NCBI GenBank assembly: GCA_964545915.1
Contig: CAZJHQ010000001.1
Span: forward strand, 248,341-312,340
Source: an uncultured Candidatus Kuenenia sp.
GTDB taxonomy: Bacteria > Planctomycetota > Planctomycetia > Pirellulales > UBA1268
Direction: 5' to 3'
DNA length: 64,000 bases
Part shown: positions 12,774 to 33,020 of the stretch, piece after piece
Position numbering within the stretch: the first letter of the stretch is position 1
How the letters are laid out: the number at the start of each line of letters is the position of its first letter
The notes under the pieces: model-generated
Database searches by the model: none
Seen by the model: only the letters and a program-made list of their open reading frames with translations
What the model was told of the DNA's origin: nothing
Translations under genes and position numbers: made by a program

Positions 12774-15617
12774 ATGCGCGACGTCAGAAATATGGCACTG
12801 CGGGGCGGGATGCTGTGTGCAACCGCGGTGGCGGTGTGGTTGGGGGTGGCCAGCGCCGGCGGTGAGCCGGCGCGGGCGGGCGAGGCGGATGCGCTGCGGC
12901 GGGAAACGGGATGGCCGAACGGGCTGGTGGTGGTGCTGGACGAACCCGGCCTGGCCCTGGATCTGGGCAAAGACGGTCGCCAGCTCGTGATGTTTTTGAG
13001 CACCGACCCGCAGGCCGCGCATGCGGTGCGGGAGCAGATCCTGGCGGCGGGGCTGGCGGGCATCGTGACGGCCGATGTCTGGGATGGCGCGGCGATTCCG
13101 CTGCGCGGAAAACTCGCGAACGTGGTGGCGGTGGGGAATGCGGCCGCGGCGCCGCCGGCGGAGGAGCTGCGACGGGTGGTGATCCCGGGCGGCAGCATCT
13201 ACCGGAAGCGAGGCGGGCAGTGGGTCGATGAGAAGACGCCCTGGCCGGCGGAGTATGACGACTGGACGAACGTCGACGGTCTCGCTTCCGGCAACGCGGT
13301 GAGCCGCGATCGTGAGGCGACGATGCCCAAGGGTTTCCAGTGGATCGGCGGCATGGGTAGCCACAAGCAGGATGGCACCGATCCGTTGATCGAGCGGGAC
13401 ACTGCGGTCATGGACTATTGGGTGGCGGCGAAGGCCTACAAAGCCGCGGGCCCCATGCCGGGGAACGCCCTGTCACCGGAGCTGGCGGAGCGGCTGACGC
13501 TGAAGCCGTTGCCGGTGAACCTTTCGCACCCCACGCGTGTCGGGCGGGATGCGTTCAACGGTTTGCCACGGTGGACGCACCTGTACTCGAGCCGCGGCCT
13601 GACGAGCCTGACCCTCGGCGGAGGAAACGCCTATTTCCCGCTGCAGCCGGTCAACACCTGGGGGAAGGCGGTCACGGAAGACCGTGTCACGCCGATCCGG
13701 GCGGTGGATCTGCGAACCGGGGAGGTCCGTGCCACGTTCAACGACGCGCCGGCGTGGCGGACACCGGTGCAGAAGGGGGCGCGTGAGGATCGCATCCAGG
13801 TGGCGTACGACCGGGGCCGCGTGTACATCGCGGGGCCGGGTCGGGTGACGGCGTCGGACGCCAAATCGGGCGCGTTGCTGTGGTCGGTGGATGGGGAAGG
13901 GGCGACGATGACGTTTCCGGTGATCAGCCCGGACGGCAAGACGCTCTACTGCCTCGACGGCGACGGCGTGCCGCAGACGATTCGTTACTTTGGCATGCGA
14001 CAGGTGCGGGCGGTCGTGGCGATCGACACGGCCACCGGCAAACTCCGCTGGCGATCCGCGGTTACCAGCAACGAGGCTTCGCAACTGCTCGCGCTGGATG
14101 ACGGCGTCTTGGTGGGCCGCCTTCCGCATCACGGCTGGAACGTGGGCGCAAAGAAGAAAAAAACTTCGGGCGAAGACGAGCCGTACGTGACCGGAGTGGA
14201 TCGCTTCGATGTCAGTGGCAAGAAGCTGTGGACGACCAGCCGGGTGCCGGGGAAGGGATCGGCTTTGGGGGATGGCCAGATCGGCAACGGCGGGATGAAC
14301 ATGCTCGTCAAGGACGGTGCGGTGTTCGTGGCGGAACACTGGCGGACGGTGCGGATCGACCTCGCGAGCGGCGCAGCGGAGTCGTTCTCGCATCCGAACA
14401 TCGGCTGCCAGCGGCTGTTCGGGCTGGCCGATTCGATCGCATGTGCGAATCTGGTGCTGTGGAGCTGGCCGGGTGGGCAGACCAATCCTTCGTGGACATA
14501 CACCGGGATAGCGCACCCGGAGTGTGGGAGCGGATTCAGCGTGGCGAACGGGCGGTTCTACATTCGCTCGATGAACATGTGCGACTGCAACTTTCATCTC
14601 CGCACGAGCCAGTGCTTCCATGCGGAGGATCCGCCGGAGCCGGTTGCGGACGCGCAGCGGCTGACGACCGCCAAAGGCATCCCGGGGCCGGTGCGAACCG
14701 TGCCGGCAGCGCCGCCGGAGCCGCATGGCTCATCGTTGATTCGGGCGGAATGGCGGCTGGGGTATTACGGCGAGCTGCACTCGGCCTGGAGCCCGGTGGT
14801 GGTGCGTCCGGATGACACCCCGCAAGGCGCCCCGCCGCGACTGGGTGAGGTGACGTTTACGCCGCGGGTGCATGCGCAGCGGCTCGAGGCGCGGAATGGG
14901 GAGGAGCTGGTCTGGGCGCAGCAGCTGGGCGGGCGGCCGGCTGGCCAGCCGGTCGTGAGCGACGGCCTCGTCATCCAGGCAAGCCGTGACGGCTTCGTCT
15001 ACGCCTTCGAGGCGGCCACGGGTGCGCCACGGTGGCGATTCCTCGCGGCCCGGGCCGACCGGCGGCTGGTCAACAGCGGGCAGCTGGAATCGGTCTGGCC
15101 GTGCGTGGGGGCCGTGCTGCACGACGGCACGCTCGCGGTCGTGGCCGGCATATCGCCCGAGACCGACGGCGGGGGCATGGCCTGGGGCTTGGACCCGGCG
15201 ACGGGGGCGATCCGCTGGAAGATCGAGATCGCGACGGCGCCGATCAGGTCCGAGGGCGGCGCGTCGACGCCGGGCCGGGAGAGTGCGGAGTTCGCGGGGT
15301 TCCACGGGTTTAAGGGGACTCGGGCCTTGGGCCGCGGGTTTGCGATGCAGGGCGTGAAGGTCGTGCAGGGAAAACTCTGCGTCGGCTATTTCCGGACGAA
15401 GAACTTCGGGTCGCACGGATCGCCGTTCTGGGCATGGGTGGCGCTCGACCCGGCGACGGATCGGAGCGTCGACCTGTGCACCCGGTGGTATGGCGAGCCG
15501 AGGCGACCGAAGTCCGGCCCGCGCGAGGAACCGCAGCCTGGGAGCTCACTCCGGTTCTTCGAGTGGGAGGACGGCTCGGTCACCGAAGGGCCGAATCCGC
15601 CTGGGACCAAGAAGTAG
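12774..15617 (+). CDS. PQQ-like beta-propeller repeat protein, secreted
   Basis: ATG at 12774 in ORF 12750..15617. Signal peptide, then repeated ...A.D..TG...W... propeller blades (AVDLRTGEVRATF, ASDAKSGALLWSV, AIDTATGKLRWRS, AFEAATGAPRWRF, GLDPATGAIRWKI). Confidence 0.75.
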   Translation: MRDVRNMALRGGMLCATAVAVWLGVASAGGEPARAGEADALRRETGWPNGLVVVLDEPGLALDLGKDGRQLVMFLSTDPQAAHAVREQILAAGLAGIVTADVWDGAAIPLRGKLANVVAVGNAAAAPPAEELRRVVIPGGSIYRKRGGQWVDEKTPWPAEYDDWTNVDGLASGNAVSRDREATMPKGFQWIGGMGSHKQDGTDPLIERDTAVMDYWVAAKAYKAAGPMPGNALSPELAERLTLKPLPVNLSHPTRVGRDAFNGLPRWTHLYSSRGLTSLTLGGGNAYFPLQPVNTWGKAVTEDRVTPIRAVDLRTGEVRATFNDAPAWRTPVQKGAREDRIQVAYDRGRVYIAGPGRVTASDAKSGALLWSVDGEGATMTFPVISPDGKTLYCLDGDGVPQTIRYFGMRQVRAVVAIDTATGKLRWRSAVTSNEASQLLALDDGVLVGRLPHHGWNVGAKKKKTSGEDEPYVTGVDRFDVSGKKLWTTSRVPGKGSALGDGQIGNGGMNMLVKDGAVFVAEHWRTVRIDLASGAAESFSHPNIGCQRLFGLADSIACANLVLWSWPGGQTNPSWTYTGIAHPECGSGFSVANGRFYIRSMNMCDCNFHLRTSQCFHAEDPPEPVADAQRLTTAKGIPGPVRTVPAAPPEPHGSSLIRAEWRLGYYGELHSAWSPVVVRPDDTPQGAPPRLGEVTFTPRVHAQRLEARNGEELVWAQQLGGRPAGQPVVSDGLVIQASRDGFVYAFEAATGAPRWRFLAARADRRLVNSGQLESVWPCVGAVLHDGTLAVVAGISPETDGGGMAWGLDPATGAIRWKIEIATAPIRSEGGASTPGRESAEFAGFHGFKGTRALGRGFAMQGVKVVQGKLCVGYFRTKNFGSHGSPFWAWVALDPATDRSVDLCTRWYGEPRRPKSGPREEPQPGSSLRFFEWEDGSVTEGPNPPGTKK

Positions 15618-16140
15618 GGGACGCGGGGCGAGCCTCCTGGGCTGCATCATCGGCGGTTCCGCCAAGACCTTTTGGCAGGTGGCACCCGCAGGTGAGCCAA
15701 GGCCGGGCGTCACCGCAAACTCCCGCAGTGGAACCAAATGAAGACGTGCAGGCGGTCAAAGAAGATGTCGGCCTGTGGTTCAACATGACGGCACTGATGG
15801 CGGCCCACCAGCGACGGCTTGATGCCCGGGCGGTGCCACTGACGTGCCAGTGAGTTTCAAGTCCTTCTGCATCGAAGGGCGGCAGTGAATCGCGACGGGG
15901 AGCAACACGTTCTCGGCATGCACCCCAGCGCCCGGTGCGACCTACTGCTCCTTCCTGCAGACTTCCAACTGCGTCGGATTCTGCGTCGCTTTCCCGCGAC
16001 AACCCCCGCTTTTCCGAACGAAAACGCAATTGTGCGTGATCCCTGTCGGGGGTAGTGCGTTTCCGCACACGCGGCTGAACTGCCCGGTTGTCCACCCGAC
16101 CCGACAAGCTCTCCGCCGCGCCGGTCGCGAACTTTTTCCG

Positions 16141-16261
16141 CGCGGGGCAGGGGATGGTGATCTTCGTCCCGCCGAGGGCCAAACACGACAAGAAGCGGAG
16201 CCCGGGGTTCTATCAAGACGTGAGCGAGTACCTCACCGACCTCGGCGTGCCGCAGGTTTGA
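16141..16261 (+). pseudogene. DUF2075 ATPase gene 3'-terminal fragment, copy R0 (last ~40 codons plus stop)
   Basis: Encodes ...ARQGMVIFVPPRAKHDKKRSPGFYQDVSEYLTDLGVPQV*, homologous to the end of the gene at 18516. Confidence 0.8.
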
Positions 16262-16268
16262 TCGCTAA

Positions 16269-16508
16269 TCACGCGCTCCGCTGCAGCACGCTTCCAAGCG
16301 CTTGTAGGGCTAGCGGTTGCGGCAACGGCTTACCGGCCTCCTCCAGCGTTTCAATCGCCTCTTCGACCATTTCGCAGAGTTCGACGAACACCTTCGTGGC
16401 GTCGTCGCCATAGGATCCGCCGTACATCAGCTGTGGACAGGTGCCGACGAAGCAATTGTCTTCGTCTGACCACTCGACAACCTTCACGTATCGGTCGCCT
16501 TTCGCCAT
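16269..16508 (-). CDS. hicB: HicB-family antitoxin
   Basis: MAKGDRYVKVVEWSDEDNCFVGTCPQLMYGGSYGDD...EEAGKPLPQP is a typical HicB N-terminal fold. Directly downstream of hicA. Confidence 0.8.
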   Translation of the reverse strand: MAKGDRYVKVVEWSDEDNCFVGTCPQLMYGGSYGDDATKVFVELCEMVEEAIETLEEAGKPLPQPLALQALGSVLQRSA

Positions 16509-16701
16509 TGGTTCACCTCGTTGATGGCCTCTTGAACCGTTTTCTCGAGATGCCGCCGAGCATCATCGCCATCCCTACCCGAATCGTAACCACTTTGGCA
16601 ACGAGCGGGTGACTGTAGTTCCGATGGCTTCCCTTGCCTGATCGCTCCTCGAATCCAGCCTTCACGAGATCCCTGACGAGTTCGCGGATTTTTCGGGGCA
16701 T
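16484..16701 (-). pseudogene. hicA: HicA toxin, apparent 1-nt frameshift
   Basis: From ATG 16701: MPRKIRELVRDLVKAGFEERSGKGSHRNYSHPLVAKVVTI. The expected continuation SGRDGDDARRHLEKTVQEAINEV is in the adjacent frame (ORF 16484..16903), with the shift near 16585. Confidence 0.7.
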
Positions 16702-16728
16702 GCGACCGTTCCTTCGGGCAACACGCAA

Positions 16729-16772
16729 GGCGTGTACAGGCGTACCGTCTTTCGTCAAGCCCCCCCGCGGGC
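16729..16772 (-). promoter_or_regulatory. J motif copy J0 (minus strand: TTGACG-N16-TACACG), upstream of hicA
   Basis: Plus strand reads ggcgtgtacaggcgtaccgtctttcgtcaagcccccccgcggg. Same motif as at 19223, 20398 and 23023. Confidence 0.45.
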
Positions 16773-18516
16773 GACTGAGCCTGCTTTGGTTGGCGTCTCC
16801 TACGTTTGCTTCTTCGAGGACGGTTTCCAACGTCACAAGCTCGTATCGGTGCCGATGGTTTTCCTGCCGCCGGCACAAAGCATACGCCCGTACACGGCAG
16901 CATCAGGCCTTCGGCCCGGGATTCCTGGCTCGGGCGCCGGGCTCGGCCGTGCGATCCGCCTGGCTATCGATGCCTCCCTCCCTCTCCCTCTGGGAGAGGG
17001 CCGGGGTGAGGGTGCCTCGGCCGCCCCGCGTCTCGACCCTGCCACCATCAACCCCGCCACCTGGGGCACCGGCTCCTATTCCCCCACGCCCACGATCATC
17101 GAGGCGGCCCGGTCGCTCTACGCCCGCCACACGGTCCACGACATCACCCGCAGCGACGCGGGGGCCGTGAACCTCGCGGCCACGAGCGGGTGCATCGAGT
17201 GGATCATCACCGCGGCGAAGGCCGGGCGGCGGAAGGCGATCGTGTTTGTCACCGGCGTTCCCCGAGTGGGCAAAACGCTCGTGGGCCTGAACGTGGCCAC
17301 GCGGCATGGCGAGCGGTCCGACGCGGCCCACGCGGTGTTCCTCTCGGGCAACGGCCCGCTGGTGGCGGTGCTGCGGGAGGCCCTGGCCCGCGACGACCTC
17401 GACCGCGCGAGGCGCACCGACCCGAAGGCCCGCATCGGCACCTCCAGAAGCGCCGTCAAAGCCTTCATTCAAAACGTCCACCACTTCCGCGACGACACGC
17501 TCCGCGACCCCGCTCCGCCCGACGATCATGTCGTGGTGTTCGACGAGGCCCAGCGGGCGTGGGATGCCCGGCAGCTCGCGAGCTTCATGAAGCGGAAGAA
17601 GGGGCGGCCGGGGTTCACGCAGTCGGAGTCGGAGCTGTTGCTTTCGGCGCTCGACCGGCATGACGACTGGGCCGTGGTGGTCTGTCTCGTGGGGGGCGGC
17701 CAGGAGATCAACACGGGCGAGGCGGGGATCGGCGCGTGGCTGGAGAGCGTCCGCACGGCGTTCCCCGGCTGGGACGTCTTCATTTCGCCGCATCTGACCG
17801 ACTCCGAGTATGCGGCCACCGGTGCCCTCGCTCGGCTCACGGAATCGCGGGCCGGTGCGGCGGCCGCCACGTTCGAGCCGGCCTTGCACCTGGCCACATC
17901 GATGCGTTCCTTCCGCGCCGAATCGCTCTCCCGCTTCGTGAAGGCGTTGCTCGACGGCGAGGTGGACTCGTGCCGCGAGCTCCTGGCCGCCTTTCGCGAG
18001 CAGTATCCGATCGTGCTCACGCGGAGCATGCGGGCGGCCCGGCGGTGGATCCGCCAGCAGCGGCGGGGCACGGAGCGGGCGGGGCTGGTGGCCTCCTCGT
18101 CGGCCCAGCGGCTCAAGCCCCACGCGATCGACATTCGGGTGAACATCGACCCGGTGCACTGGTTTCTGAGCCCCGCGAAAGACACCCGCTCGTCGCTCTA
18201 TCTCGAAGACGCGGCGACGGAGTTTCAGGTGCAGGGGCTGGAGCTCGACTGGACGATCGTCACGTGGGACGCCGACTTACGCTGGTCGGGCGACGACTGG
18301 AGCTATCACAGTTTTCGCGGGGCGAAGTGGACGGACGTGAAGAAGCCCGAGCGGCGGCAGTATCTGAAGAACGCCTACCGCGTGTTGCTCACGCGGGCCC
18401 GGCAGGGGATGGTGATCTTCGTCCCGCCGGGGGCGAAACGCGACAAGACGCGGAGCCCGGGGTTCTACAAGGGGGTAAGCCAGTATCTCGCCGACCTGGG
18501 CGTGCCGCAGGTTTAG
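16732..18516 (+). CDS. DUF2075-type P-loop ATPase / helicase-like protein (start uncertain, possibly 5'-truncated)
   Basis: Walker A FVTGVPRVGKT and Walker B-like HVVVFDEAQRAW. Other DUF2075-like blocks are VVCLVGGGQEINTGEAG and ...KNAYRVLLTRARQGMVIFVP.... The first ~110-145 codons of the maximal ORF overlap the J motif, an antisense PIN fragment and a REP-like hairpin (ccctctcc...ggagaggg). The real start may therefore be the GTG at 17167, or the gene may be truncated. Confidence 0.7.
   Translation: MYRRTVFRQAPPRATEPALVGVSYVCFFEDGFQRHKLVSVPMVFLPPAQSIRPYTAASGLRPGIPGSGAGLGRAIRLAIDASLPLPLGEGRGEGASAAPRLDPATINPATWGTGSYSPTPTIIEAARSLYARHTVHDITRSDAGAVNLAATSGCIEWIITAAKAGRRKAIVFVTGVPRVGKTLVGLNVATRHGERSDAAHAVFLSGNGPLVAVLREALARDDLDRARRTDPKARIGTSRSAVKAFIQNVHHFRDDTLRDPAPPDDHVVVFDEAQRAWDARQLASFMKRKKGRPGFTQSESELLLSALDRHDDWAVVVCLVGGGQEINTGEAGIGAWLESVRTAFPGWDVFISPHLTDSEYAATGALARLTESRAGAAAATFEPALHLATSMRSFRAESLSRFVKALLDGEVDSCRELLAAFREQYPIVLTRSMRAARRWIRQQRRGTERAGLVASSSAQRLKPHAIDIRVNIDPVHWFLSPAKDTRSSLYLEDAATEFQVQGLELDWTIVTWDADLRWSGDDWSYHSFRGAKWTDVKKPERRQYLKNAYRVLLTRARQGMVIFVPPGAKRDKTRSPGFYKGVSQYLADLGVPQV
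16775..16878 (-). pseudogene. Internal PIN (VapC) gene fragment
   Basis: Translates ENHRHRYELVTLETVLEEANVGDANQSRLS, matching residues ~36-70 of the intact PIN gene at 18703..19185 (ENRRHRYELVTSASVLDEVRSGDQSQSGL). Flanked by inverted copies of GTGTAC(A/G)GGCGTA (16731 and 16879-16896). Confidence 0.6.
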
Positions 18517-18713
18517 GCCGACTGGCCGAGTTCAGCCGCCTCGCGTCGTTCGGCTTCTTCTCGCTCGTTCGTCAGCCTTTCCGCATCAAGTTCACGGATA
18601 TGGCGGAGGTAGCCCTCCACGCCCCCGTACTTCTCGAGCAGCTGCTGGCGGATCGCATGTATCTCCGCCACGATCGGATCGTCTTGCTCATCGATGACGG
18701 GTTTAGTGGCCAT
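18513..18713 (-). CDS. Small helical partner protein of the PIN toxin (putative antitoxin)
   Basis: 66 aa, overlaps the PIN gene end by 11 nt. Its stop codon overlaps the DUF2075 stop on the other strand (TTTAG). Confidence 0.55.
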   Translation of the reverse strand: MATKPVIDEQDDPIVAEIHAIRQQLLEKYGGVEGYLRHIRELDAERLTNEREEAERREAAELGQSA

Positions 18714-19185
18714 GGTCGTGCTCCATCAGGTCTGTAGGCGTGCAGATATTCGGAATGTGCTTGTCAAGTCTTCGCAACCATCGTTCGATCGGCCGGCGAC
18801 TGGATTCATTTGCGAGATGAGAGCAGTTCCACGTCAACAAGAAGTCTACTTGGTATGCCGAGGCAAACGCGACGTGAAACGCATCGACGCTCGCTCCCGG
18901 AGGAATCCAGCCCTTCCGCAGAAGTTCCGAACCAATGAATTCTACCTCGGGGCTCAACGTGAGAACGTGAATCCCTTTCAGGGCCGCGGTTCGCAAACCG
19001 CTTTGGCTCTGGTCGCCGCTCCGCACCTCGTCCAAAACGCTGGCAGACGTCACCAACTCGTATCGGTGCCGACGGTTTTCCCACCACGACCTGGTGATCG
19101 CCTGCTTGGCGGCCAGTTCGCCGTCCGGCGAGAGGCGGGCAACCAGGTACGACGGGATCGTGGTCTCGAGGTAGACGCTTGGCAC
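18703..19185 (-). CDS. vapC: PIN-domain (VapC-family) toxin
   Basis: MPSVYLETTIPSYLVA...DAFHVAFASAYQVDFLLTWNCSHLAN has PIN acidic residues and the LLTWN motif of a widespread VapC subfamily. Confidence 0.75.
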   Translation of the reverse strand: MPSVYLETTIPSYLVARLSPDGELAAKQAITRSWWENRRHRYELVTSASVLDEVRSGDQSQSGLRTAALKGIHVLTLSPEVEFIGSELLRKGWIPPGASVDAFHVAFASAYQVDFLLTWNCSHLANESSRRPIERWLRRLDKHIPNICTPTDLMEHDHGH

Positions 19186-19222
19186 GATTGGTTTCCGCGG
19201 CGAGGCGGCGATTCATGCCATG

Positions 19223-19322
19223 GAGTGTACATGCGTACCGTTCTTCGTCGAGCCCCCCGCGGGGGACCAAGGTTGTCCCTCGGATTGGTATCCTGCCTCC
19301 GATGGTTGCCCTCCTACCTATG
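19223..19322 (-). promoter_or_regulatory. J motif copy J1 (long form with GGGAC...GTCCC hairpin and tail), upstream of the PIN gene
   Basis: Plus strand reads gagtgtacatgcgtaccgttcttcgtcgagccccccgcgggggaccaaggttgtccctcggattggtatcc.... The minus strand gives TCGACG-N16-TACACT 38 nt before the GTG start. Confidence 0.45.
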
Positions 19323-19340
19323 GCCGCACTCGAGCGAGAG

Positions 19341-19748
19341 CGGCTCAAGCCCCACGCGATCGACATTCGGGTGAACATCGACCCGGTGCACTGGTTTCTG
19401 AGCCCCGCGAAAGACACCCGCTCGTCGCTCTATCTCGAAGACGCGGCGACGGAGTTTCAGGTGCAGGGGCTGGAGCTCGACTGGACGATCGTCACGTGGG
19501 ACGCCGACTTACGCTGGTCGGGCGACGACTGGAGCTATCACAGTTTTCGCGGGGCGAAGTGGACGGACGTGAAGAAGCCCGAGCGGCGGCAGTATCTGAA
19601 AAACGCCTACCGCGTGTTGCTCACGCGGGCCCGGCAGGGGATGGTGATCTTCGTCCCGCCGGGGGCGAAACGCGACAAGACGCGAAGCCCGGGGTTCTAC
19701 GAGGGGGTGAGCCAGTACCTCACCGACTTGGGCGTGCCGCAGATCTAG
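19341..19748 (+). pseudogene. DUF2075 gene 3'-terminal fragment, copy R2 (last 135 codons plus stop)
   Basis: 408 nt colinear with 18109..18516 and near-identical except the last ~60 nt (...FYEGVSQYLTDLGVPQI* versus ...FYKGVSQYLADLGVPQV*). Confidence 0.85.
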
Positions 19749-19786
19749 GCCGCCTTGCCGAGGTAAGCCGCCTGACTGCGATCGAC

Positions 19787-20032
19787 CTATTTGCCGTTGA
19801 TGCGGCTCCGCCTGCTGGCATGCAAGATCGTGAGCCCGATGATCTCTTCACCCCGGTAACGCACGATGATGTCGTCGGGCCCGAGCTCGCTGTCGGTCGC
19901 CTCTGCCCCCGGTTCGAAGTTCATGTAGATCACGTCCGCCGGCTCGTCATAGGTGCACTGCATCGATCGATGCGGAGCCTGGAGAACGGCCGGGATCGCG
20001 TCGAGAAAATCGCTCAATTGGACGGGGGCCAT
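19787..20032 (-). CDS. DUF2283-domain protein (putative antitoxin)
   Basis: ...DEPADVIYMNFEPGAEATDSELGPDDIIVRYRGEEIIGLTILHAS is a typical DUF2283 pattern. Overlaps the upstream small gene. Confidence 0.65.
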   Translation of the reverse strand: MAPVQLSDFLDAIPAVLQAPHRSMQCTYDEPADVIYMNFEPGAEATDSELGPDDIIVRYRGEEIIGLTILHASRRSRINGK

Positions 20033-20361
20033 ACCTGTCGTCTCCGCTTGAAGATCGCCGCGACTCGCGAGGTCACGAATGCCGTGATCACAAAGCCGTC
20101 CTGCGCATCGACTTCCCTATAGGCTACCACCAGCGCTTTCCCGGAATCCAACCGATGCACGGCCAGCAGTTCGCCGGCGGTGCCTTCGAGCACATATTCG
20201 GCGTTGGTGATCGCCTCGAGCACAGTCGGCCGGAGGCGGGCCAACTCCGGATGCCCTTCCGAGATGTGCTGCCATCGCTCCGCCGAAAGCCGCACCCACA
20301 CCCCGTTCCTCGACCTCGCCCCAGATGGTTCATCGTCGCCTTGCTTCGCGTTCGTGATCAC
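20014..20361 (-). CDS. Small toxin-like protein of uncharacterised family (W-x-H-I-x3-HPE motif), paired with DUF2283
   Basis: ...VWVRLSAERWQHISEGHPELARLRPTVLEAITNAEYVLEG...ALVVAYREVDAQDGFVITAFVTS.... GTG at 20361 chosen because the upstream part of ORF 20014..20520 is antisense to J/R3. Confidence 0.5.
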   Translation of the reverse strand: MITNAKQGDDEPSGARSRNGVWVRLSAERWQHISEGHPELARLRPTVLEAITNAEYVLEGTAGELLAVHRLDSGKALVVAYREVDAQDGFVITAFVTSRVAAIFKRRRQVWPPSN

Positions 20362-20397
20362 AGCGGCATTTTCTCGTTGGCCCGCGAGGAGTGTACA

Positions 20398-20433
20398 TGC
20401 GTACCGTCCTTCGTCAAGCCCCACGCGATCGAC
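20398..20433 (-). promoter_or_regulatory. J motif copy J3 (minus strand: TTGACG-N16-TACACT)
   Basis: Plus strand reads ggagtgtacatgcgtaccgtccttcgtcaagcccc, fused directly to R3 through the shared 9-mer TCAAGCCCC. Confidence 0.5.
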
Positions 20434-20727
20434 ATCCGGGTGAACATCGACCCGGTGCACTGGTTTCTGAGCCCCGCGAAAGACACCCGCTCGTCGCTCT
20501 ATCGCCCCCCCATCTATCACAGTTTTCGCGGGGCGAAGTGGACGGACGTAAAGAAGCCCGAGCGGCGGCAGTATCTGAAGAACGCCTACCGCGTGTTGCT
20601 CACTCGGGCCCGGCAGGGGATGGTGAACCTCGTCCCGCCCGGGGCGAAACGCGACAAGACGCGGAGCCCGGGGCTCTACGAGGGGGTGTGCCAGTACCTC
20701 ACCGACCTCGGCGTGCCGCAGGTTTAG
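20424..20727 (+). pseudogene. DUF2075 gene 3'-terminal fragment, copy R3 (internal deletion)
   Basis: ...KPHAIDIRVNIDPVHWFLSPAKDTRSSLY|RPPI|YHSFRGAKWTDVKKPERRQYLKNAYRVLLTRARQGMVNLVPPGAKRDKTRSPGLYEGVCQYLTDLGVPQV*. About 34 codons are missing relative to the full gene. Confidence 0.85.
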
Positions 20728-21356
20728 GCCGGCGACGCATTCGACTTCATTGCGACCGGCGCCGCCTGCTTGCCGTATAGCAACTGGGCGATCACTGCCG
20801 TGATCAGCGACTTATCCTCGGGATGGCTGGATGCGGTCAGGAGCGTGAGCGCGACCAACGCGGTGTCGGAGATTCGTCGTTCGCCTGCTCCGGCATACAA
20901 CGCGCCATTTTTCTCCAGGAACCAGAGGAAAAGTGCCGCGGCGATACGCTTGTTCCCGTCCACGAAGGGATGGCTCTTCGTCAGGAAATACAACAAGTGG
21001 GCGGCCTTGTCTTCGAGGCTTGGGTAGAGATCCCTGCCCTCGAAGGTCTGCATGACGGCGCCCAGAGCACCCGCGAGTCCGGCATCTTTCTCATGGCCAA
21101 AAAGATCAGATGCGTTGAACCGAGATCGGAGTTGCCGAACGATCCGCAGTGCCTCGTCGTAGTCGATGCCCTTCGCGGGCCCAGTAGCGGGGAGCGTCGG
21201 GGGAAGTCGCTCGTGGTCGTAGTCATCGAGAACGTCCAGTGCGAAGCTGTATTCGCCAACCACCTGCAGGAAAGTGCGCGTTCCCTGGTAGACGTGTTCT
21301 CCAATCATTTCCGGCTCCGATCTGCTATCCATCGTTGTATCTCCAGCTTTGCGCAC
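20724..21356 (-). CDS. Fic/DOC family protein
   Basis: Canonical Fic motif HPFVDGNKRIAAALF. The start may be the internal ATG at 21332. The stop overlaps the R3 stop (TTTAG). Confidence 0.8.
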   Translation of the reverse strand: MRKAGDTTMDSRSEPEMIGEHVYQGTRTFLQVVGEYSFALDVLDDYDHERLPPTLPATGPAKGIDYDEALRIVRQLRSRFNASDLFGHEKDAGLAGALGAVMQTFEGRDLYPSLEDKAAHLLYFLTKSHPFVDGNKRIAAALFLWFLEKNGALYAGAGERRISDTALVALTLLTASSHPEDKSLITAVIAQLLYGKQAAPVAMKSNASPA

Positions 21357-21693
21357 AAATGCGAAACCATTCGGGCGGTTCTTGTCGCCGTCGCGATCAA
21401 ATACTATACATCTGTTCTCTTTCCGCCGTCAAGCCAGCTCGCAAGGTCCCTGTCTTGGTGGTGTCGCGGGATTCGGTATTGAAGCCAATATGCCGACCGA
21501 CAAAAGCTCCGAAACCGTTCGCCCGCTGTTGCAGCTATCGCATAATGGGGGACACGAAGCCGATCAATCCAGTAAGCAACAAGCGCCCTCATGGGGCCGC
21601 TCAAACAAACCGTTGTTGATGGCCGACTGGCATGAACCGCGCGCACGAGCGCCTACATTGCTGGAATAGAACTTCTCACGCCGTTGCAATCAC

Positions 21694-22272
21694 ATGACGC
21701 AGGTTCTCTATAGCCAGCTAGAGATGGCCACAATACTAGGCGTAACCAGTGACGCTGTCGGGCTTAAAATCAAGAAGCTCAAGAGTCGCGGATTCGATGT
21801 GGGCGAGACTCAGGTGCGCGTATCGCAAAAGGAGGGCCGCCGTGACGTCGTTCGAATGATAATGAAGTATCCGGCAGCAACGCTCCGCGCAGTCGCAACA
21901 AGACAGTGTGGGACACTAGCCGTTACTGACGACAGCCTAATACCGGATGTCGTTGTGCTCCGGCCGGAGATTCACTTTGGCGAATTGATGTCCTGCCTTA
22001 CTGCGGCGTTTGCGATGCGGACGCAGCATCCGTTCGGTCGATTCCGTGTCGACTTCTACTTCCCTGATGCAATGCTCGTAGTCGAGTATGACGAAGAATC
22101 GCACGCCAAGACACAGGACAGGGACAGGCGTCGCCAAGCCTATATCGAGGAGCGATTTGGCGTTACGTTTATTCGGGTGAAGGAAGGCAAGGAGATCGTC
22201 GGCTTCCGTAAAGTCATCGGGTATCTGTTCCGGCAACGCGGTTTAGCTGCCGGTACGGCCTCCGACTGCTGA
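21694..22272 (+). CDS. HTH plus PD-(D/E)xK (Vsr/DUF559-like) endonuclease-domain protein
   Basis: N-terminal HTH-like LEMATILGVTSDAVGLKIKKL. C-terminal FRVDFYFPDAMLVVEYDEESH...RRRQAYIEERFGVTFIRV resembles DUF559/Vsr-type nuclease cores. Visibly lower GC than the surroundings. Confidence 0.55.
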   Translation: MTQVLYSQLEMATILGVTSDAVGLKIKKLKSRGFDVGETQVRVSQKEGRRDVVRMIMKYPAATLRAVATRQCGTLAVTDDSLIPDVVVLRPEIHFGELMSCLTAAFAMRTQHPFGRFRVDFYFPDAMLVVEYDEESHAKTQDRDRRRQAYIEERFGVTFIRVKEGKEIVGFRKVIGYLFRQRGLAAGTASDC

Positions 22273-22294
22273 AATCTGAACTACGAATGTGTTT

Positions 22295-22470
22295 AAGAAG
22301 CCCGAGCGGCAAAGGATCTGAAGAACGCCTCCCTTGTGTTACTCACGCGGGCCCGGCAGGGGATGGTGATCTTCGTCCCGCCGGGGGCGAAACGCGACAA
22401 GACGCGGAACCCAGGGTTCTATCAAGGCGTGAGCCAGTACCTCAACGCCCTGGGCGTGCCGCAGGTCTAG
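22295..22470 (+). pseudogene. DUF2075 gene 3'-terminal fragment, copy R4 (degenerate, last ~58 codons)
   Basis: aagaagcccgagcgg...ctcacgcgggcccggcaggggatggtgatcttcgtcccgccggggg...gtgccgcaggtctag, with indels relative to 18341..18516. Confidence 0.8.
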
Positions 22471-22484
22471 GCAGACCGAGCTGG

Positions 22485-22745
22485 TCAACTGGCCTTGGCT
22501 GACGGCCTCGGTGCGGGAGCCCCACGAAGCAGACCCTCGACTGAAATATCCTCATCGATCTCCGGCCAATGGATGCCGTACCCAGCGCCTGCAACCTGCC
22601 AGTTGGCCCGCTGTTCGGGCGTCGCGTGCAACAGCCGCGGATACCAGGCGAGCGGGGCGGAAATGGTCCGGCCATCGGCCAAGTCGACGACCAGGCAATC
22701 ATCGGTGCAATGCATGTTCGTCACGCGTTCACCCTGCGTCGCCAT
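22485..22745 (-). CDS. DUF2442-domain protein
   Basis: ...LVVDLADGRTISAPLAWYPRLLHATPEQRANWQVAGAGYGIHWPEIDEDISVEGLL is the characteristic DUF2442 sequence. Confidence 0.75.
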   Translation of the reverse strand: MATQGERVTNMHCTDDCLVVDLADGRTISAPLAWYPRLLHATPEQRANWQVAGAGYGIHWPEIDEDISVEGLLRGAPAPRPSAKAS

Positions 22746-22971
22746 GGATAGCCTCCCACTCGTCCAAAAGCTCGGCGATGGAATTCTCGATCAACCGTTC
22801 GATCGTTCGCAGCTCGTGAGCCCGAAATCCAAGATTACTGGCGAGGGCCACCGGGGACAACCAGAACTTGCAGGACGCCGCATCTCGATCGACGTGCACG
22901 TGAGCCGGTTCGTTCATCTCGTGCGAATAGAAATAAACGCGGTAGGGTCCACTTCGCAGAATCGTTGGCAT
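22729..22971 (-). CDS. DUF4160-domain protein
   Basis: MPTILRSGPYRVYFYSHEMNEPAHVHVDRDAASCKFWL is the characteristic DUF4160 N-terminus. Overlaps the downstream DUF2442 gene, a common two-gene pair. Confidence 0.75.
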   Translation of the reverse strand: MPTILRSGPYRVYFYSHEMNEPAHVHVDRDAASCKFWLSPVALASNLGFRAHELRTIERLIENSIAELLDEWEAIHGDAG

Positions 22972-23022
22972 CGGGCAACCCGATTGGCGGGGCTTTTAGC
23001 GGCATCGCGCCGCGTTGGCAGG

Positions 23023-23121
23023 AAGTGGACATGCGTCCCGTCCTGCGTCAAGTCCCCCGCGGGGGGCCAAGGTTGTCCCTCGGATTGGTATCCTGCTTCC
23101 CATGGTTGCCGCCCTGCCTAT
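23023..23121 (-). promoter_or_regulatory. J motif copy J5 (long form, degenerate: TTGACG-N16-TCCACT)
   Basis: Plus strand reads aagtggacatgcgtcccgtcctgcgtcaagtcccccgcggggggccaaggttgtccctcggattggtatcc..., colinear with J1. Confidence 0.4.
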
Positions 23122-23526
23122 CGCCACGTTCGAGCCAGCCTTTGGTGCCTCTTGCGCCATCGTGCTCACGCGGAGCATGCGGGCGGCCCGACGGTGGATC
23201 CGCCGGCAGCGGCGGGGCACGGAGCGGGCGGGGCTGGTGGCCTCCTCTTCGGCGAGAGCGGCTCAAGCCCCACGCGATCGACATTCGGGTGAACATCGAC
23301 CCGGTGCACTGGTTTCTGAGCCCCGCGAAAGACACCCGCTCGTCGCTCTATCTCGAAGACGCGGCGACGGAGTTTCAGGTGCAGGGGCTGGAGCTCGACT
23401 GGACGATCGTCACGTGGGACGCCGACTTACGCTGGTCGGGCGACGACTGGAGCTACCACAGTTTCCGCGGGGCGAAGTGGACAGACGTGAAGAAGCCCGA
23501 GCGGCGGCAGTATCTGAAGAACGCCT
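23122..23526 (+). pseudogene. DUF2075 gene fragment, copy R5 (starts further 5', internal deletion, 3' end cut)
   Basis: gccacgttcgagcc (as at ~17866), then a deletion to ...IVLTRSMRAARRWIRRQRRGTERAGLVASSS..., then colinear to ...RRQYLKNA, where homology stops 40 nt before the PLD-helicase gene end. Confidence 0.8.
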
Positions 23527-23565
23527 CAGCCTCTGCGTAACAGCCCCGACGTCTCTGGTCGGGCG

Positions 23566-26500
23566 CTACCCAACTGCAACCCGAGCAAGTCGCGTTGGCA
23601 TGGGCGTCCGCAGGCGCCAGACAATGCTGAGAGGCCGACTGCCCTCGTGGGAGACATAATGGCCTGGACCGAGGAAGGCGTACGGGGAGGCAAGACCGCC
23701 GGTGAGTAGCTTCCGCTCTCGGACAAACAGTAACGGGGTGTAGCCGTGCTCGTGGTGACGGATGTATCGCTGGCCCGTGGGCGAGTCCGCCGAAGTCGTA
23801 CTCTGGGATTGCCAGTGAAAAAGTTCCTCGCTGATCGCGTAGTCCTCGTACATCGTGGTCGGTGAGTAGGCTTCCTCCGTTTTCTGCAGCGTGATGAAAA
23901 AGGCGTCGATTTTCCGGTCGGGTATGTGCAGCACGCCCTCGCGGAAGTCTGGGCGACGATCTAGGTTCCAGTGGCCGAGGCCGATCAGGGCTTCGTCTCG
24001 AGTGTATTCGGCATGGAGCGCGAGCGGGCCGGTGAGATCGGGGAGCAGCTCGGTCGGCCGGGTACGAGTGTGATGCAAGCGGTACTCAAGCACAGCTTTG
24101 ACGTCGGCGAGAGCGCTTGGATTCGCGCGAAGTCGCTCATCTGCTTCGTCGATTGACATGGAGATGCCGTCGACCCCCCAGAGGGTGACGTGCAGCATCG
24201 CCCGGCGTCGTTCGGCGAGACGATCCGACGGCGTCTGCCCATCAAGGTGGGCGAGCAGGAACCGAATTTGCTGTGGGTCATCGATGTGAATCAGGCGGTG
24301 GATGCCCTTGGCAAGGCGGACTTCGTCGGCGGCGACGGGTGCATCGGCGAGCCCCGCGTCGTTGAGTAGCTGGCTCCATAGACCCCGCTTGAGCACCTCA
24401 CTGAGAGTGGTGTCAAGGTATTCCAGCGTCTCGCGGATCGTCGGGGCGCGGCCGAGATGGCGGCCAAGCTCCCGGATATCACCGACCATCTGCGGTCGCC
24501 GCAGGGTAAGTGACTGACGCACATTCTCCAGCACTCGTTGCTGCGCCACCCTCTCCAGCCGGATAAAGCAGCCAGCGGGCAGATGAGGGAATCCGGACTC
24601 GATCTCGCTTTCAAGTCGGCCGGTCGGATCGGTACTGAGCGCGCGAAACCGAGAGGCAAAGCGGAACTGCCGGTGCTGTGCGCCGATGAAGTCGAGGACA
24701 GTCAGGCAGTCTTTATCGTCATGCAAGCGGAGCCCGCGGCCGAGTTGCTGCAGGTAGACGGTAAGGCTCTCAGTCGGCCGTAGGAAGAGAACCGTATCGA
24801 CCTCAGGGATGTCGACGCCCTCGTTGTAGAGGTCGACGACAAAAATAAAGTTAATCTCGCGGCGGACGAGCCGTTCCTTAGCAGCGAGTCTTTCGTCAGT
24901 CAGCGTATCAGCCGAAAGAGCGATCGCAGGGATGTTGTGCTCGGAAAAGAAGTGCGCCATGAAGTTGGCGTGAGCGACGCTGACACAGAACCCCAGCCCT
25001 CGGGATTGACGCGGATCGAGCAGAATCTCGCGTACCTTGTCGAACACGAGCCCAGCGCGTACGTCGTTGCCTGTGTACACCGCGTCGAGGTCTTCGATAC
25101 GGTACCCGCCGCGCTGCCATGTCATGGCGTCAAGATCGACGCTGTCGGCGATTCCGAAGTACTGGAAGGGGCAGAGTAGACGTCGGCTGATTGCGTCGGG
25201 TAGTCGGACCTCAGCGGTCGGTTCCCCGCCAAATGGCGTCAGTACATCAAGACCATCGGCCCGCTCCGGCGTAGCAGTCAGCCCAAGCAAGACCTTGGGC
25301 CTGGTGGTATCGAGCAGTCGCCGGTAGCTCGGTGCTGCGGCGTGATGAAACTCGTCGACCACGATGTAGTCAAACCGGTCTGCAGGCAGATTGTGCAGAT
25401 CGCGACTGTTGTAGCTATGTATCGAGCAGAACAAGTAGTCGTACTGCTCGGGTGTTTTGCCTCCGACGAGGATGTCACCAAAGTTCTGATCGCGGAGGAC
25501 CGCCCGATATGTACCGAGGGCCTGACGGAGAATCTCCTCGCGATGCGCGATAAAGAGCAGCGAGGGCTTTCGGGTGCCGGCCCATCGCTTGTAGTCAAAC
25601 GCAGCGATCATAGTTTTGCCGGTTCCGGTGGCAGCGACAACCAAATGGCGGTTCTTGCCCTGCACCTCGCGCTCGGCTGCCATCGCGTCGAGAATCTCTT
25701 CCTGAAATGGGTAAGGCCGCAGGTCGAACGTGGGCAGTTCGCTGTTCTCGACTGTTCCCCGCGTGCGCTCACGGCTAATCGCTTCTCGAAGCCTTGGCAG
25801 TGCGTTACCGTCGAAGGCCTCGAACTCGTCGTCGTTCCAATACGTTTCGAAGGTTGCGACGATCTTTTGCCAGAGGTGCGGGAGCTCGTACTGGCTGATC
25901 TTGCTCGTCCATTCGAGCCCTTCGGAGAGCGCTGCTCGGGAGACATTTGCAGAGCCGATGTAGGCGCTGCCAAAGCCAGTCGTACGGTGGACTAAATAAG
26001 CCTTGGCGTGCAGTCGGGTGCGCTCTGTGTCGTAGGACACTTTGACTTGGGTGTTGGGCAGATCGCGCAACGCTTCGATCGCGTTCGCATCGGTGGCGCC
26101 CATGTAGCTCGTCGAGATGACTCGAAGCCGCGGTCCGTCCGGATGTGGCGTTGCGGTAAGTACGCGGAGTGCGTCCATCAGTAGGCGAATGCCGCTCCAT
26201 TTGATGAACGAGCAGAGGATGTCGACACGATCAGCGGCAGCGAACTCCTTAGAGAGCTGCGACGCGAGTGAGGGGTCGAGGCGGGCACCGGTGAGCAAGG
26301 CTGAGCGAGCGAGCGGGGTGTCGGGGCGGAGCGTAGCCGTTTCCCTTGGGTCGGCGTGCACGGCGAGCAACCGACGAAGCGGGCTGGCCAGATTGAATCG
26401 ATCGGCCCACTCGTCGCCGAGCTCGGCGACGAGGGCGGCGATCACGCGGTCAACGAGCCGGCGTTGCCGCTCGGCCGCCTCGCGCCCGCGAAGAGTAGAG

Positions 26501-26694
26501 AGGGACTCGGCGAGGATACGCTCAAGGTACTGGGCGATTGCGGTGTGGCCGTCCTCGGCATCGACATCGGCCAACTCGACAAGCCGCGCGTCACCAATGC
26601 CCTCGACTTTTGTTTTTAGGGCGACGTCGACTAGGTGGTCATAAAGACCGTGTGGTACTTTCGGTCGCGGTTCCCTTTGGCTGGGCATCGTCAT
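23566..26694 (-). CDS. PLD-nuclease / SF2 (ResIII-type) helicase / DUF3427 fusion protein (restriction-like defence enzyme)
   Basis: HKD motif RLHAKAYLV...GSANVSRAAL. Helicase motif I AATGTGKT, motif II VVDEFHH and motif VI QQLGRGLR. C-terminal ...FFITLQKTEEAYSPTTMYEDYAISEELFHWQSQS...LLFVRERK...YAFLGPGHYVSHEGSRPLSIVWRL is the DUF3427 signature. The ATG at 26694 overlaps the stop of the upstream gene (ATGA). GC is visibly lower than the neighbours. Confidence 0.85.
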   Translation of the reverse strand: MTMPSQREPRPKVPHGLYDHLVDVALKTKVEGIGDARLVELADVDAEDGHTAIAQYLERILAESLSTLRGREAAERQRRLVDRVIAALVAELGDEWADRFNLASPLRRLLAVHADPRETATLRPDTPLARSALLTGARLDPSLASQLSKEFAAADRVDILCSFIKWSGIRLLMDALRVLTATPHPDGPRLRVISTSYMGATDANAIEALRDLPNTQVKVSYDTERTRLHAKAYLVHRTTGFGSAYIGSANVSRAALSEGLEWTSKISQYELPHLWQKIVATFETYWNDDEFEAFDGNALPRLREAISRERTRGTVENSELPTFDLRPYPFQEEILDAMAAEREVQGKNRHLVVAATGTGKTMIAAFDYKRWAGTRKPSLLFIAHREEILRQALGTYRAVLRDQNFGDILVGGKTPEQYDYLFCSIHSYNSRDLHNLPADRFDYIVVDEFHHAAAPSYRRLLDTTRPKVLLGLTATPERADGLDVLTPFGGEPTAEVRLPDAISRRLLCPFQYFGIADSVDLDAMTWQRGGYRIEDLDAVYTGNDVRAGLVFDKVREILLDPRQSRGLGFCVSVAHANFMAHFFSEHNIPAIALSADTLTDERLAAKERLVRREINFIFVVDLYNEGVDIPEVDTVLFLRPTESLTVYLQQLGRGLRLHDDKDCLTVLDFIGAQHRQFRFASRFRALSTDPTGRLESEIESGFPHLPAGCFIRLERVAQQRVLENVRQSLTLRRPQMVGDIRELGRHLGRAPTIRETLEYLDTTLSEVLKRGLWSQLLNDAGLADAPVAADEVRLAKGIHRLIHIDDPQQIRFLLAHLDGQTPSDRLAERRRAMLHVTLWGVDGISMSIDEADERLRANPSALADVKAVLEYRLHHTRTRPTELLPDLTGPLALHAEYTRDEALIGLGHWNLDRRPDFREGVLHIPDRKIDAFFITLQKTEEAYSPTTMYEDYAISEELFHWQSQSTTSADSPTGQRYIRHHEHGYTPLLFVRERKLLTGGLASPYAFLGPGHYVSHEGSRPLSIVWRLRTPMPTRLARVAVG

Positions 26695-28313: not shown

Positions 28314-28318
28314 CCCTA

Positions 28319-28362
28319 GGAGTGTACGGGGCGGAGGGACAACGTTGGTCCGAGCCAGAAAC
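28319..28362 (-). promoter_or_regulatory. Short J-type motif upstream of A' (AGTGTACG...GGGACAACGTTGGTCC)
   Basis: ggagtgtacggggcggagggacaacgttggtcc is colinear with 32962-32995 and 37222-37258. Confidence 0.35.
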
Positions 28363-28377
28363 CCCGCTGGCCGGCCA

Positions 28378-28405
28378 TTGACAAGAAACTACACGGGCGT
28401 ACAGC
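28378..28405 (+). promoter_or_regulatory. Sigma-70-like promoter TTGACA-N16-TACAGC for the plus-strand NTase-like pair
   Basis: ttgacaagaaactacacgggcgtacagc lies 40 nt upstream of ATG 28445. Homologous module at 33021. Confidence 0.35.
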
Positions 28406-28444
28406 ATCAAGCAATCAGCCCAGCCCCAGACGTTTCGGTGTCCA

Positions 28445-28870
28445 GTGATTCCCCCCTTCGTGCCAGACGGTCGGCTCCCGGAAGGCCTCCATGTCGCCTC
28501 TGAGGGCGAAATGCTCAGCCGGTTTGCCACAGGCTCGCCCCAGCGAAGTCTCTTGGGCCGAACGATAAGCCACTGGATTCGGCTTTGCCGATCGGCAGGA
28601 GCGACGCGACTGTGCGTCGATGGCAGTTTCGTGACCGCGAAGGAGGTACCGAACGATGCCGACGTGGTCGTTTTGCTCGGGCCGGATTTCGCCACTCGGA
28701 TCGCGCGCGGCAATGTCGACGCAATTCTCCTGGCCGAAATCCTCGATTCACGACCGAATGAGCACTTGTTCGCTGCGGAAGATCGCCGGGACTGGGACGA
28801 CTGGATAGACTTTTTTAGTCGGACGATCGATCCGACGGTCCGCAAAGGACTCGTGGAGGTGACGCTGTGA
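28445..28870 (+). CDS. Nucleotidyltransferase-fold protein (DUF6932-like), TA-like module component
   Basis: ...LPEGLHVASEGEMLSRF...RLCVDGSFVTAKEVPNDADVVVLL... matches the pattern I associate with DUF6932/MNT-like NTases. Confidence 0.5.
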   Translation: MIPPFVPDGRLPEGLHVASEGEMLSRFATGSPQRSLLGRTISHWIRLCRSAGATRLCVDGSFVTAKEVPNDADVVVLLGPDFATRIARGNVDAILLAEILDSRPNEHLFAAEDRRDWDDWIDFFSRTIDPTVRKGLVEVTL

Positions 28871-29073
28871 TTTCGAACGCCGCGGAATACGAGAAGGCCC
28901 ATGGTGACCTACGAATCCTCGAGCAGCGCATTGCGGACCTCGAGCGTGAGCATCCGATCGGTGAAAAGGGATTCACCAAGGCAGGTGTGCGGAAGATGAT
29001 CGCCAAGATCAACGAAGAACTCGCCGCATTCGAAGGCCGCGAGGAAGCGAGGCTTGCCGCGTCCAGAATCTGA
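28867..29073 (+). CDS. Small helical protein coupled to the NTase-like gene
   Basis: GTGA start/stop overlap with 28445..28870. 68 aa, coiled-coil-like (...HGDLRILEQRIADLEREHP...). Confidence 0.45.
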   Translation: MISNAAEYEKAHGDLRILEQRIADLEREHPIGEKGFTKAGVRKMIAKINEELAAFEGREEARLAASRI

Positions 29074-29112
29074 GCACAGCAACCGTGCGCCCGGCACGAT
29101 TCGACGAGGCCG

Positions 29113-32955: not shown

Positions 32956-32961
32956 GCCCGG

Positions 32962-32995: not shown

Positions 32996-33020
32996 GGTAG
33001 ACTGCGTCGAAGGAGAGCTG

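Follow-up and report, generated by a model that had tools for sequence, protein, structure and literature searches.

Homologous recombination as the probable builder of an array of DUF2075 gene remnants and convergent toxin-antitoxin cassettes in a planctomycete defence island

Chromosomal integrons hold compact promoterless cassettes, many of them toxin-antitoxin (TA) pairs, with repeats between them, and addiction is thought to stabilise the array. In the orphan arrays of rhs and cdiA loci, 3′ fragments of the main gene are followed by small genes; the orphans bear differing C-terminal toxin domains, with the cognate immunity gene on the same strand, and homologous recombination with the main gene can rearrange the locus. 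Integrative elements and their decayed derivatives (CIMEs) accrete in tandem at the 3′ end of a target gene, for example fda or tRNA-Lys in streptococci (PMC7563491). TA 'islets' are proposed to be kept by addiction and to spread via homologous recombination at flanking genes, and they erode over time (PMC13617665, Mol Biol Evol 2026). Here we analyse a locus of an uncultured Candidatus Kuenenia sp. (GTDB Planctomycetota; Planctomycetia; Pirellulales; UBA1268) within a stretch of 64,000 nucleotides (nt) that we call the window (contig CAZJHQ010000001.1, 248,341-312,340 of the forward strand, assembly GCA_964545915.1); coordinates are window positions unless another locus is named. The host population is a freshwater Planctomycetaceae lineage, and the locus sits in a defence island. 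The 3′ end of a DUF2075 gene occurs six times across 16146-23526, each time with a different convergent cassette after it, as the initial annotation had described and as blastn, Pfam and a repeat search independent of blastn, which recovers the same repeat families, now bear out. Our analysis indicates that this arrangement is a variant of TA islets and accretion arrays and not a new class of machinery, and that it probably arose through homologous recombination, with gene-plus-cassette units accreting and exchanging while redundant helicase copies were whittled down.

As in TA islets, the insertions are small and TA-only, carry no mobility genes and lie between two conserved convergent defence genes. 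Here, however, the flanking gene is itself duplicated at each step, and remnants of its promoter/ATG and of its 3′ end remain between the cassettes; the product is a repeat-scaffolded tandem array in which all cassettes are toxin-first under copies of one promoter. As in the accretion of integrative elements and CIMEs, every cargo block is delimited by a repeated copy of the target 3′ end, and order and content of the blocks vary by strain. There the accretion is site-specific, through an integrase and short att sites whose position is fixed, whereas here no integrase is adjacent, the repeats reach ~650 nt and contain the gene's 5′ region, and the junctions vary. In the literature on DUF2075 with TA systems, on PDC-S41 and on tandem gene fragments in defence islands we found no description of this arrangement, and the initial annotation likewise knew of none for DUF2075 genes as such a scaffold.

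The scaffold gene is Nhi-like: its full-length relatives share the architecture of the DUF2075 defence protein of Millman et al. (bioRxiv 10.1101/2022.05.11.491447), and those at loci L001 and L003 match the PDC-S41 profile end to end and have a DUF2075/SLFN-g3 helicase domain behind an N-terminal region. Neither repeated fragments nor linked TA cassettes are described in these sources, and from these profile matches we regard the clade as a candidate defence gene of the Nhi-like kind. The longest copy in the window (16900-18516, plus strand; PF09848, E 2.7e-77; PDC-S41) has a complete helicase domain (PF09848 positions 1-353 of 354). Although initially taken for an intact gene, it lacks ~158 N-terminal residues in comparison with L001 and L003, homology to L001 beginning at amino acid (aa) 159, and it also lacks a 5′ region and ATG of its own. 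On the 657-position PDC-S41 profile it covers 178-652 (E 5.4e-212), while L001 covers 3-652 (E 1.3e-258). Where the N-terminal region would stand there are instead one copy of the promoter-like motif J described below and what is left of a PIN toxin gene (16811-16864, minus strand, codons ~35-52; 78% identical to 19028-19081 within the PIN gene of the array), which tells us that TA cassettes can also be destroyed. No full-length Nhi-like gene is left in this genome. The L001 N-terminus is a putative nuclease, judged from a D...ExK-like motif and the published architecture; it has no Pfam match, and a sequence search returned no solved-structure relatives of the full-length protein.

The six repeat copies, R0 to R5, all lie on the plus strand, and a blastn search of the entire window with the gene region as query finds no further DUF2075 copy elsewhere in the 64 kb. 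R1 (18107-18516) is the 3′ part of the longest copy. Upstream of it, R0 (16146-16261) keeps the last ~38 codons and the stop (88% to 18401-18514, matched at 16146-16259). Downstream, R2 (19302-19748; 97% at 19339-19773) is an intact 148-aa mini-ORF (open reading frame) in which an ATG and 8 codons are joined in frame to the C-terminal ~137 aa, spanning positions 247-353 of the PF09848 profile. In J2-R3 (20388-20727) a J copy is joined directly to R3 at a common TCAAGCCCC, and R3 carries an in-frame internal deletion (matches at 20414-20503, 99%, and 20514-20731, 94%; internal gap ~102 nt). R4 (22295-22470) has the last ~58 codons and the stop (88.5%, matched at 22295-22476). R5 (23102-23526) begins with the ATG and 8 codons, continues with a piece equivalent to gene positions 17866-17890 and, after an internal deletion, with 18010-18376; it is frameshifted and its 3′ end is cut off (97.6% at 23159-23526, from gene position 18010). 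R1 and R2 are identical over 262 nt (18107-18368), and 12 of their 13 differences fall in the final 90 nt beside the cassette. We considered adenine mutagenesis of the type produced by diversity-generating retroelements for these differences and rejected it, since they are mixed transitions and transversions and not adenine-specific; Pfam scans of the window ORFs found no reverse transcriptase domain.

What heads these copies bears on how they arose. J matches the window three times at no more than 3 mismatches, against 0 expected, with a weaker fourth copy at 23022-23061, and its reverse complement reads TTGACG-16-TACACT. The first proposal, that the same promoter-like J heads each module, holds for J0 (16729-16768, 2 mismatches, a member of the repeat family), for J1 with its spacer (19222-19301), for J2 and for J4 with its spacer (23022-23101). 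The Fic gene has only a diverged J3 (21399-21450, composed of the diverged J at ~21399-21432, spacer and ATG, with a promoter-like TTGACG-18-TATAGT at 21432-21403), and the PLD-helicase gene has no J at its head. J is not merely a promoter-like box. A scan of metagenome contigs gave 21 loci with J, and DUF2075 sequence adjoins it in all 21. At L096 and L100 the ATG of a full-length gene lies ~79 nt after the first base of J, a 45-nt spacer included; at L098, L001 and L003 a diverged J, spacer and ATG precede genes of 695-751 aa; and the spacer of the orphan copies, J1 among them, aligns with the 5′ region of full-length genes. Going by these alignments, J with its spacer is the region that natively precedes the gene, ATG included, and it is shared in back-to-back fashion with the promoter of the cassette upstream.

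The spacer-bearing orphans all open with the same ATG and eight codons (MVAALPIA), joined to the gene at aa ~481 (L088), 518, 551, 557 or 559. In one orphan type J runs straight into R at the shared TCAAGCCCC, and spacer and ATG are lost. Because the J-R junctions retain the gene's own 5′ region and ATG while the internal fusion points vary, the copies are, as far as their sequences tell, nested internal-deletion derivatives of whole-gene duplicates and not duplications of an att site. The deletion events are in frame in seven cases out of seven. Later frameshifts or premature stops are present in 10 of the 18 orphan ORFs that could be evaluated, while R2 and its counterpart at L097 are intact mini-ORFs that span the final third of the SLFN-g3 helicase profile. 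One common internal deletion of R (~aa 600-635) adjoins six different cassettes. J and spacer are 90-100% conserved, even beside diverged R copies, and in units of the cassette class A2 (classes are defined below) identity rises from 65% in the cassette through ~82% in the R tail to ~97% in J; concerted evolution, and not selection, may be the reason why J is conserved above the coding repeat. When the last 110 nt of the R tails were compared in an identity matrix, they did not group clearly by cassette. An origin of J from an IS256 transposase, suggested by L001, was discarded because the transposase fragment begins only after the spacer. L001 holds two IS256-type transposase fragments (3770-3930 and ~5705-5800 of that locus), one of which starts immediately past the J-spacer, in the place expected for an orphan repeat.

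The cassettes themselves lie on the minus strand. Cassette F (16269-16704), 8 nt past the R0 stop, consists of a hicB-like gene (16269-16508) and hicA (16513-16704; HicA_toxin, E 1.1e-07), and is also found in L003 and L098. In cassette A (18513-19185) a 66-aa protein (18513-18713) is paired with a PIN protein (18703-19185; Pfam PIN), and its stop overlaps that of R1 at 18513-18516. Cassette G (19787-20385), 39 nt past the R2 stop, pairs DUF2283 (19787-20032) with a 123-aa partner (20014-20385); beside it, 19749-19773 is the leftover 3′ end of an A-type antitoxin, a remnant that is kept in cassette G and in an orphan of L003. The Fic-domain protein (20724-21356; Fic, E 9.6e-14; PDC-S23-like by PADLOC, E 1.5e-60) extends ~13 residues past its family profile, as if read through to the R-overlapping stop, and its stop overlaps that of R3 at 20724-20727, which gives, as reported initially, two overlapping convergent stop pairs. 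Cassette B (22485-22971), 15 nt past the R4 stop, encodes DUF2442 (22485-22745) and DUF4160 (22729-22971) by Pfam. R5 is followed after 40 nt by a PLD-ResIII helicase-DUF3427 protein (23566-26742; Pfam), which resembles type IV restriction enzymes by its profile match (PADLOC mREase_IV, E 1.4e-235). A DUF559 (Vsr-like) endonuclease gene (21694-22272, plus strand; E 1.8e-08; ~56-60% GC in 1-kb windows) is inserted in the DUF2075 remnant between the diverged J3 and R4. It is the array's sole plus-strand gene apart from the scaffold copies.

Across loci, the TA-type pairs are adjacent co-oriented small genes with Pfam matches to HicA, PIN, DUF2283, DUF4258, DUF4160/DUF2442 or MqsA-like families; the 66-aa, 75-aa, 80-aa and 123-aa partner proteins have no family match. 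Where roles can be assigned (hicAB, DUF4258(-like)/DUF2283 and MqsA-like pairs), the order is constant, with the antitoxin gene against R and the toxin gene beside J. The cassettes have no promoters of their own, and the first gene starts within ~50 nt of J. Four terminal cassette proteins, unrelated to one another, have Ala-TAA as last residue and stop, encoded by an identical GCC TAA that overlaps the R stop (TTTAGGCCG). GC content is 0.56-0.64 over the array, against 0.66-0.71 in most flanking 1-kb windows.

Ten contigs from JGI and ENA samples encode exactly the window's DUF4160 protein, and for eight the alignment to the window is collinear, with 99.5-99.9% identity, which shows the array to be stable within a population: L102 over 15420-29574, L103 over 17276-29321, L105 over 18497-29301, L106 over 15695-25564, L108, L110 and L111 over shorter stretches, and L109 over 19379-23278, beyond which it diverges. 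The same cassette order recurs in three further contigs (L086, L087 and L101). The remaining two of the ten, L104 and L107, match in part. In L104 the gene is 89-92% identical to that of the window and is joined directly to cassette G, unit A being absent; identity switches ~160 nt into R, from 10 mismatches in 270 nt to none in 830 nt. The left part of L107 is 92% identical and has other cassettes, and identity becomes 100% from window position 20575, inside R3. In L109, R5 is cut at 23281 and a SinI-type restriction-modification system follows in place of the DUF3427 gene. Read from these switches in identity, recombination joints lie at different places inside the repeats. L107 (contig k141_505838) also has a ComM/Mg-chelatase-like 548-aa gene and a second hicA pair in cassette positions.

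Over the whole comparison set, 21 J-bearing metagenome loci and two relatives, the 29 stretches that run from an R stop to the following J sort into 8 classes that recur (A, A2, B, C, D, E, F and G) with 94-100% identity inside a class; the clustering itself gave 7 groups, with A2 inside A at 65%, and the split between A and A2 was made by hand. Further cassettes, Fic/DUF559 and MqsA-like, lie outside these classes. Both the combinations of cassettes and their neighbours vary between arrays. The window reads F-gene-A-G-Fic-B, L085 gene-G-C-D-B, L093 gene-A-B, L098 F-gene-C followed by restriction-modification genes, L096 and L100 E-gene, L083 E-R-A2, L001 gene-D followed by an IS256 fragment, and L003 F-F′-gene-MqsA-like. 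The arrangement is therefore not static across relatives (A-G-Fic-B in the window, G-C-D-B in L085, A-B in L093 and C in L098), and the early description of the locus as a recombination hotspot gains support both from this polymorphism and from the identity switches of L104 and L107 inside the repeat. One contig of 1401 nt, L091, has an exact 125-nt end overlap enclosing R-A-J-R and could be a circular unit or a piece of identical tandem repeats.

How far does the phenomenon extend? Distant homologues of the gene occur in many phyla at ~60% identity, and in the best 80 of ~580 confirmed matches tblastn found one copy per locus. Self-blastn of the last 420 nt in the 78 of these loci with a complete gene gave extra copies only in the planctomycete relative L003, which makes the phenomenon lineage-specific in this sample. 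We also tried a convergent overlapping partner as a trait of the family and dropped it, the partners in distant homologues being mostly spurious ORFs.

How could such an array have formed without dedicated machinery? In the mechanism that we consider probable, the repeating unit would be a whole transcription unit, composed of J and spacer, ATG, the Nhi-like gene and a convergent promoterless toxin-first TA cassette, with the following unit's J region driving the cassette on the opposite strand. Units with different cassettes would first be joined in tandem by homologous recombination, either when a looped-out or imported circle integrates (Campbell-type) or by ends-in recombination of a fragment that matches 3′ and 5′ parts of the gene. 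Blocks would then be exchanged between lineages, or lost, through RecA-type recombination in the shared gene sequence, as the breakpoints inside repeats partly document. Redundant helicase copies then decay by internal deletion, as the nested deletions show. Only the interior of a copy would be expendable at this stage, because a deletion running rightward would hit the antitoxin first and one running leftward would remove the promoter of the preceding TA cassette; since loss of J or of the antitoxin end would release the toxin, remnants would keep J and ATG at one end and their own stop at the other. The outcome in the window is five TA or TA-like pairs and a Fic gene interleaved with helicase remnants that would go on acting as homology arms.

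A number of observations sit uneasily with this account or limit it. The tandem joining, whether Campbell-type or ends-in, is a step that we infer, and growth of an array was not observed in any step, the ambiguous contig L091 being the only hint of a circle. Deletions in a single long ancestral array could likewise account for the cassette orders across loci, with neither reordering nor gain. Purely neutral decay does not predict that all seven deletions are in frame; the rough expectation would be (1/3)^7, with the reservation that independence is incomplete. R tails are never shorter than ~70 nt, while addiction alone would permit ~0 nt. Several cassette partners have no family assignment, and the TA function and addiction of the cassettes are predicted from sequence. 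Finally, the cassette boundaries are tight, at the -10 box of J on one side and at the shared GCC-TAA on the other, and homologous recombination leaves the first arrival of non-homologous cassettes unexplained. These features may leave room for a functional reading or for a more precise mechanism of capture.

One such reading, to which we give a low probability, is that the locus is an integrase-free cassette platform. The promoter/start region and the 3′ end would serve as portable arms, so that a looped-out unit could be inserted by RecA at any resident copy, and promoter, ATG and reading frame of the remnants would be under selection to direct convergent transcription and translation at the antitoxin end, tying toxin release to Nhi-like regulation. 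If this were true, the lineage would collect and exchange TA and defence cassettes in the fashion of an integron.

A second reading, which strikes us as unlikely, is that the remnants form a selected functional device, in which the Nhi promoter, ATG and open frame drive convergent transcription and translation into the antitoxin end of the cassette and so couple the TA cassettes to regulation of the defence gene, or in which C-terminal fragments modulate the full-length protein. The uniformly in-frame deletions with a kept ATG would fit such a device, as would the intact mini-ORFs of R2 and L097, but more than half of the orphan ORFs (the 10 of 18 noted above) are frameshifted or prematurely stopped, units of the J2-R3 type have neither spacer nor ATG, and R0 and R4 have no J in front of them. 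Likewise, the strong conservation of J and spacer beside diverged R could point to function, but the identity gradient of the A2 units means that concerted evolution can account for it. The promoterless, J-sharing, toxin-first cassettes, with antitoxin 3′ ends that overlap or abut the R stop, are what convergent regulation would lead one to expect; yet the antisense R tail has no significant RNA structure, and the full-length Nhi-like gene that would be regulated is missing from this genome.

Site-specific accretion, in which small integrase-less elements (CIME-like or satellite-like) would enter the 3′ part of the gene in succession by means of a recombinase acting in trans and would each bring a replacement 3′ end, is distinctly improbable in our view. 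It draws its appeal from the layout, a gene 3′ end followed by cargo, a conserved J and the next 3′ end, with the newest-looking copy beside the longest gene, and it corresponds to the serial integration of elements carrying the target 3′ end that was proposed at the outset. As far as that proposal implies att-type integration, it is not supported by the junctions, which vary (aa 481, 518, 551, 557 and 559) and carry the gene's own 5′ untranslated region and ATG, nor by the length of the repeats, which extends to ~650 nt. J and R do share TCAAGCCCC(N)CGCG, and one junction type and the truncation in L109 fall at this motif. The J-fused junction, however, is always linked to cassette G and so looks like a single microhomology deletion rather than a recurrent event, and the breakpoints of L104 and L107 lie at different places in R. 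A large serine recombinase ORF, which might act in trans, does lie 24 kb off (47624-49765, minus strand; Resolvase, Recombinase and Zn_ribbon_recom domains), with no link to the array seen; in none of more than ten loci is a recombinase adjacent, the ORFs of the window, L085, L088, L090, L098 and L102-L111 including no integrase or transposase next to the arrays. J had no match in viral contigs, and the array unit had none in plasmid or phage collections.

A strict integron-like or polymorphic-toxin-like system, which the initial annotation had offered as a resemblance, we judge very improbable, and of that resemblance only the role of repeats in mediating exchange is retained. Small promoterless cassettes in an array with repeats between them, TA cassettes of the sort typical of chromosomal integrons, and cassette ends GCCTAAAC that loosely resemble the inverse core RYYYAAC all recall integrons. 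The defining features are absent, however: neither IntI nor another tyrosine recombinase, and neither attI nor attC, was found near the arrays, there is one promoter copy per cassette, the cassettes are convergent with the scaffold gene, and the separators are coding-gene fragments of 115-650 nt. The absence of attC, defined as imperfect palindromes of 57-141 nt, is judged from the type of separator and from folding against shuffled sequence, in which antisense R tails formed no attC-like or terminator structure (z -1.1 to +1.4); a terminator scan likewise gave no more matches than shuffled sequence. As for rhs and cdiA orphans, the fragments here are near-identical, matching the C-terminus of the main gene at 88-100% and bearing no variable toxin domains, and the variation resides in a separate TA operon on the other strand, convergent with them. 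To the notion that the repeats are an assembly artefact we give practically no credence, for although near-identical repeats of 300-400 nt are a classic source of misassembly and several related contigs (L005, L032) stop at a repeat boundary, order and junctions are reproduced in at least 8 independent metagenome assemblies from different samples, assemblers and projects, at the identities given above, and each copy has private differences and deletions.

The other side of the hotspot is bounded by a conserved convergent gene that we call X (29113-33048, minus strand), a HIT-PLD-helicase-S24 peptidase gene by Pfam, which is syntenic in L003; there DUF2075 and X are direct convergent neighbours, with only two cassettes and one orphan R tail between them. 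A 5′-truncated copy of the 3′ 1.6 kb of X, denoted X′ (26691-28313, minus strand; Peptidase_S24), has an in-frame internal deletion and is 96% identical to 29172-30593 and 98% to 30720-30821, with only 78% in the last ~80 nt. Between the two lies a plus-strand cassette convergent with X (28445-29073), comprising a DUF6932 gene (28445-28870, E 3.1e-21) and a gene for a 68-aa protein (28867-29073), so that X, X′ and this cassette repeat the DUF2075 architecture in mirror image. L102 and L104 lack the window segment 29575-32699, which leaves of X only a 3′ S24 fragment. The island has a further TA module in an Unstab_antitox and ParE toxin pair (33071-33609, plus strand), preceded by a TACACT -10-like box and located immediately upstream of X. 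A 54-nt repeat at 27233-27286, 27860-27913 and 29625-29678, in X and X′ and read on the opposite strand (GGTTCAGACCCGGAGTCCCCGGG...), encodes a repeated PGDSGSE-type motif. L003 has a tRNA-Arg(CCG) at its positions 7896-7969, ~150 nt ahead of its first R tail; no tRNA occupies the corresponding place in the window, whose sole tRNA is tRNA-Asn at 789-861. Rfam gave no match within 15500-29500 at E up to 0.1.

The contigs of close relatives (L005, L032 and several other genome contigs) that terminate exactly where the repeated 3′ segment starts suggest that arrays of this kind routinely break short-read assemblies and are probably under-reported. A selective constraint, or else a joining mechanism, not yet understood, is hinted at by the in-frame deletions and by the GCC-TAA junction that unrelated cassettes share. 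On the reading that we prefer, accretion driven by homologous recombination, the positions of the TA cassettes would dictate which pieces of the gene cannot be lost, and this would account for remnants composed of promoter/start and extreme 3′ end that are annotated as small 'SLFN-g3 helicase' genes. The locus would then be a natural example of how defence islands and TA islets can be built and reshuffled without dedicated mobile machinery, with duplicated pieces of a defence gene supplying the homology.

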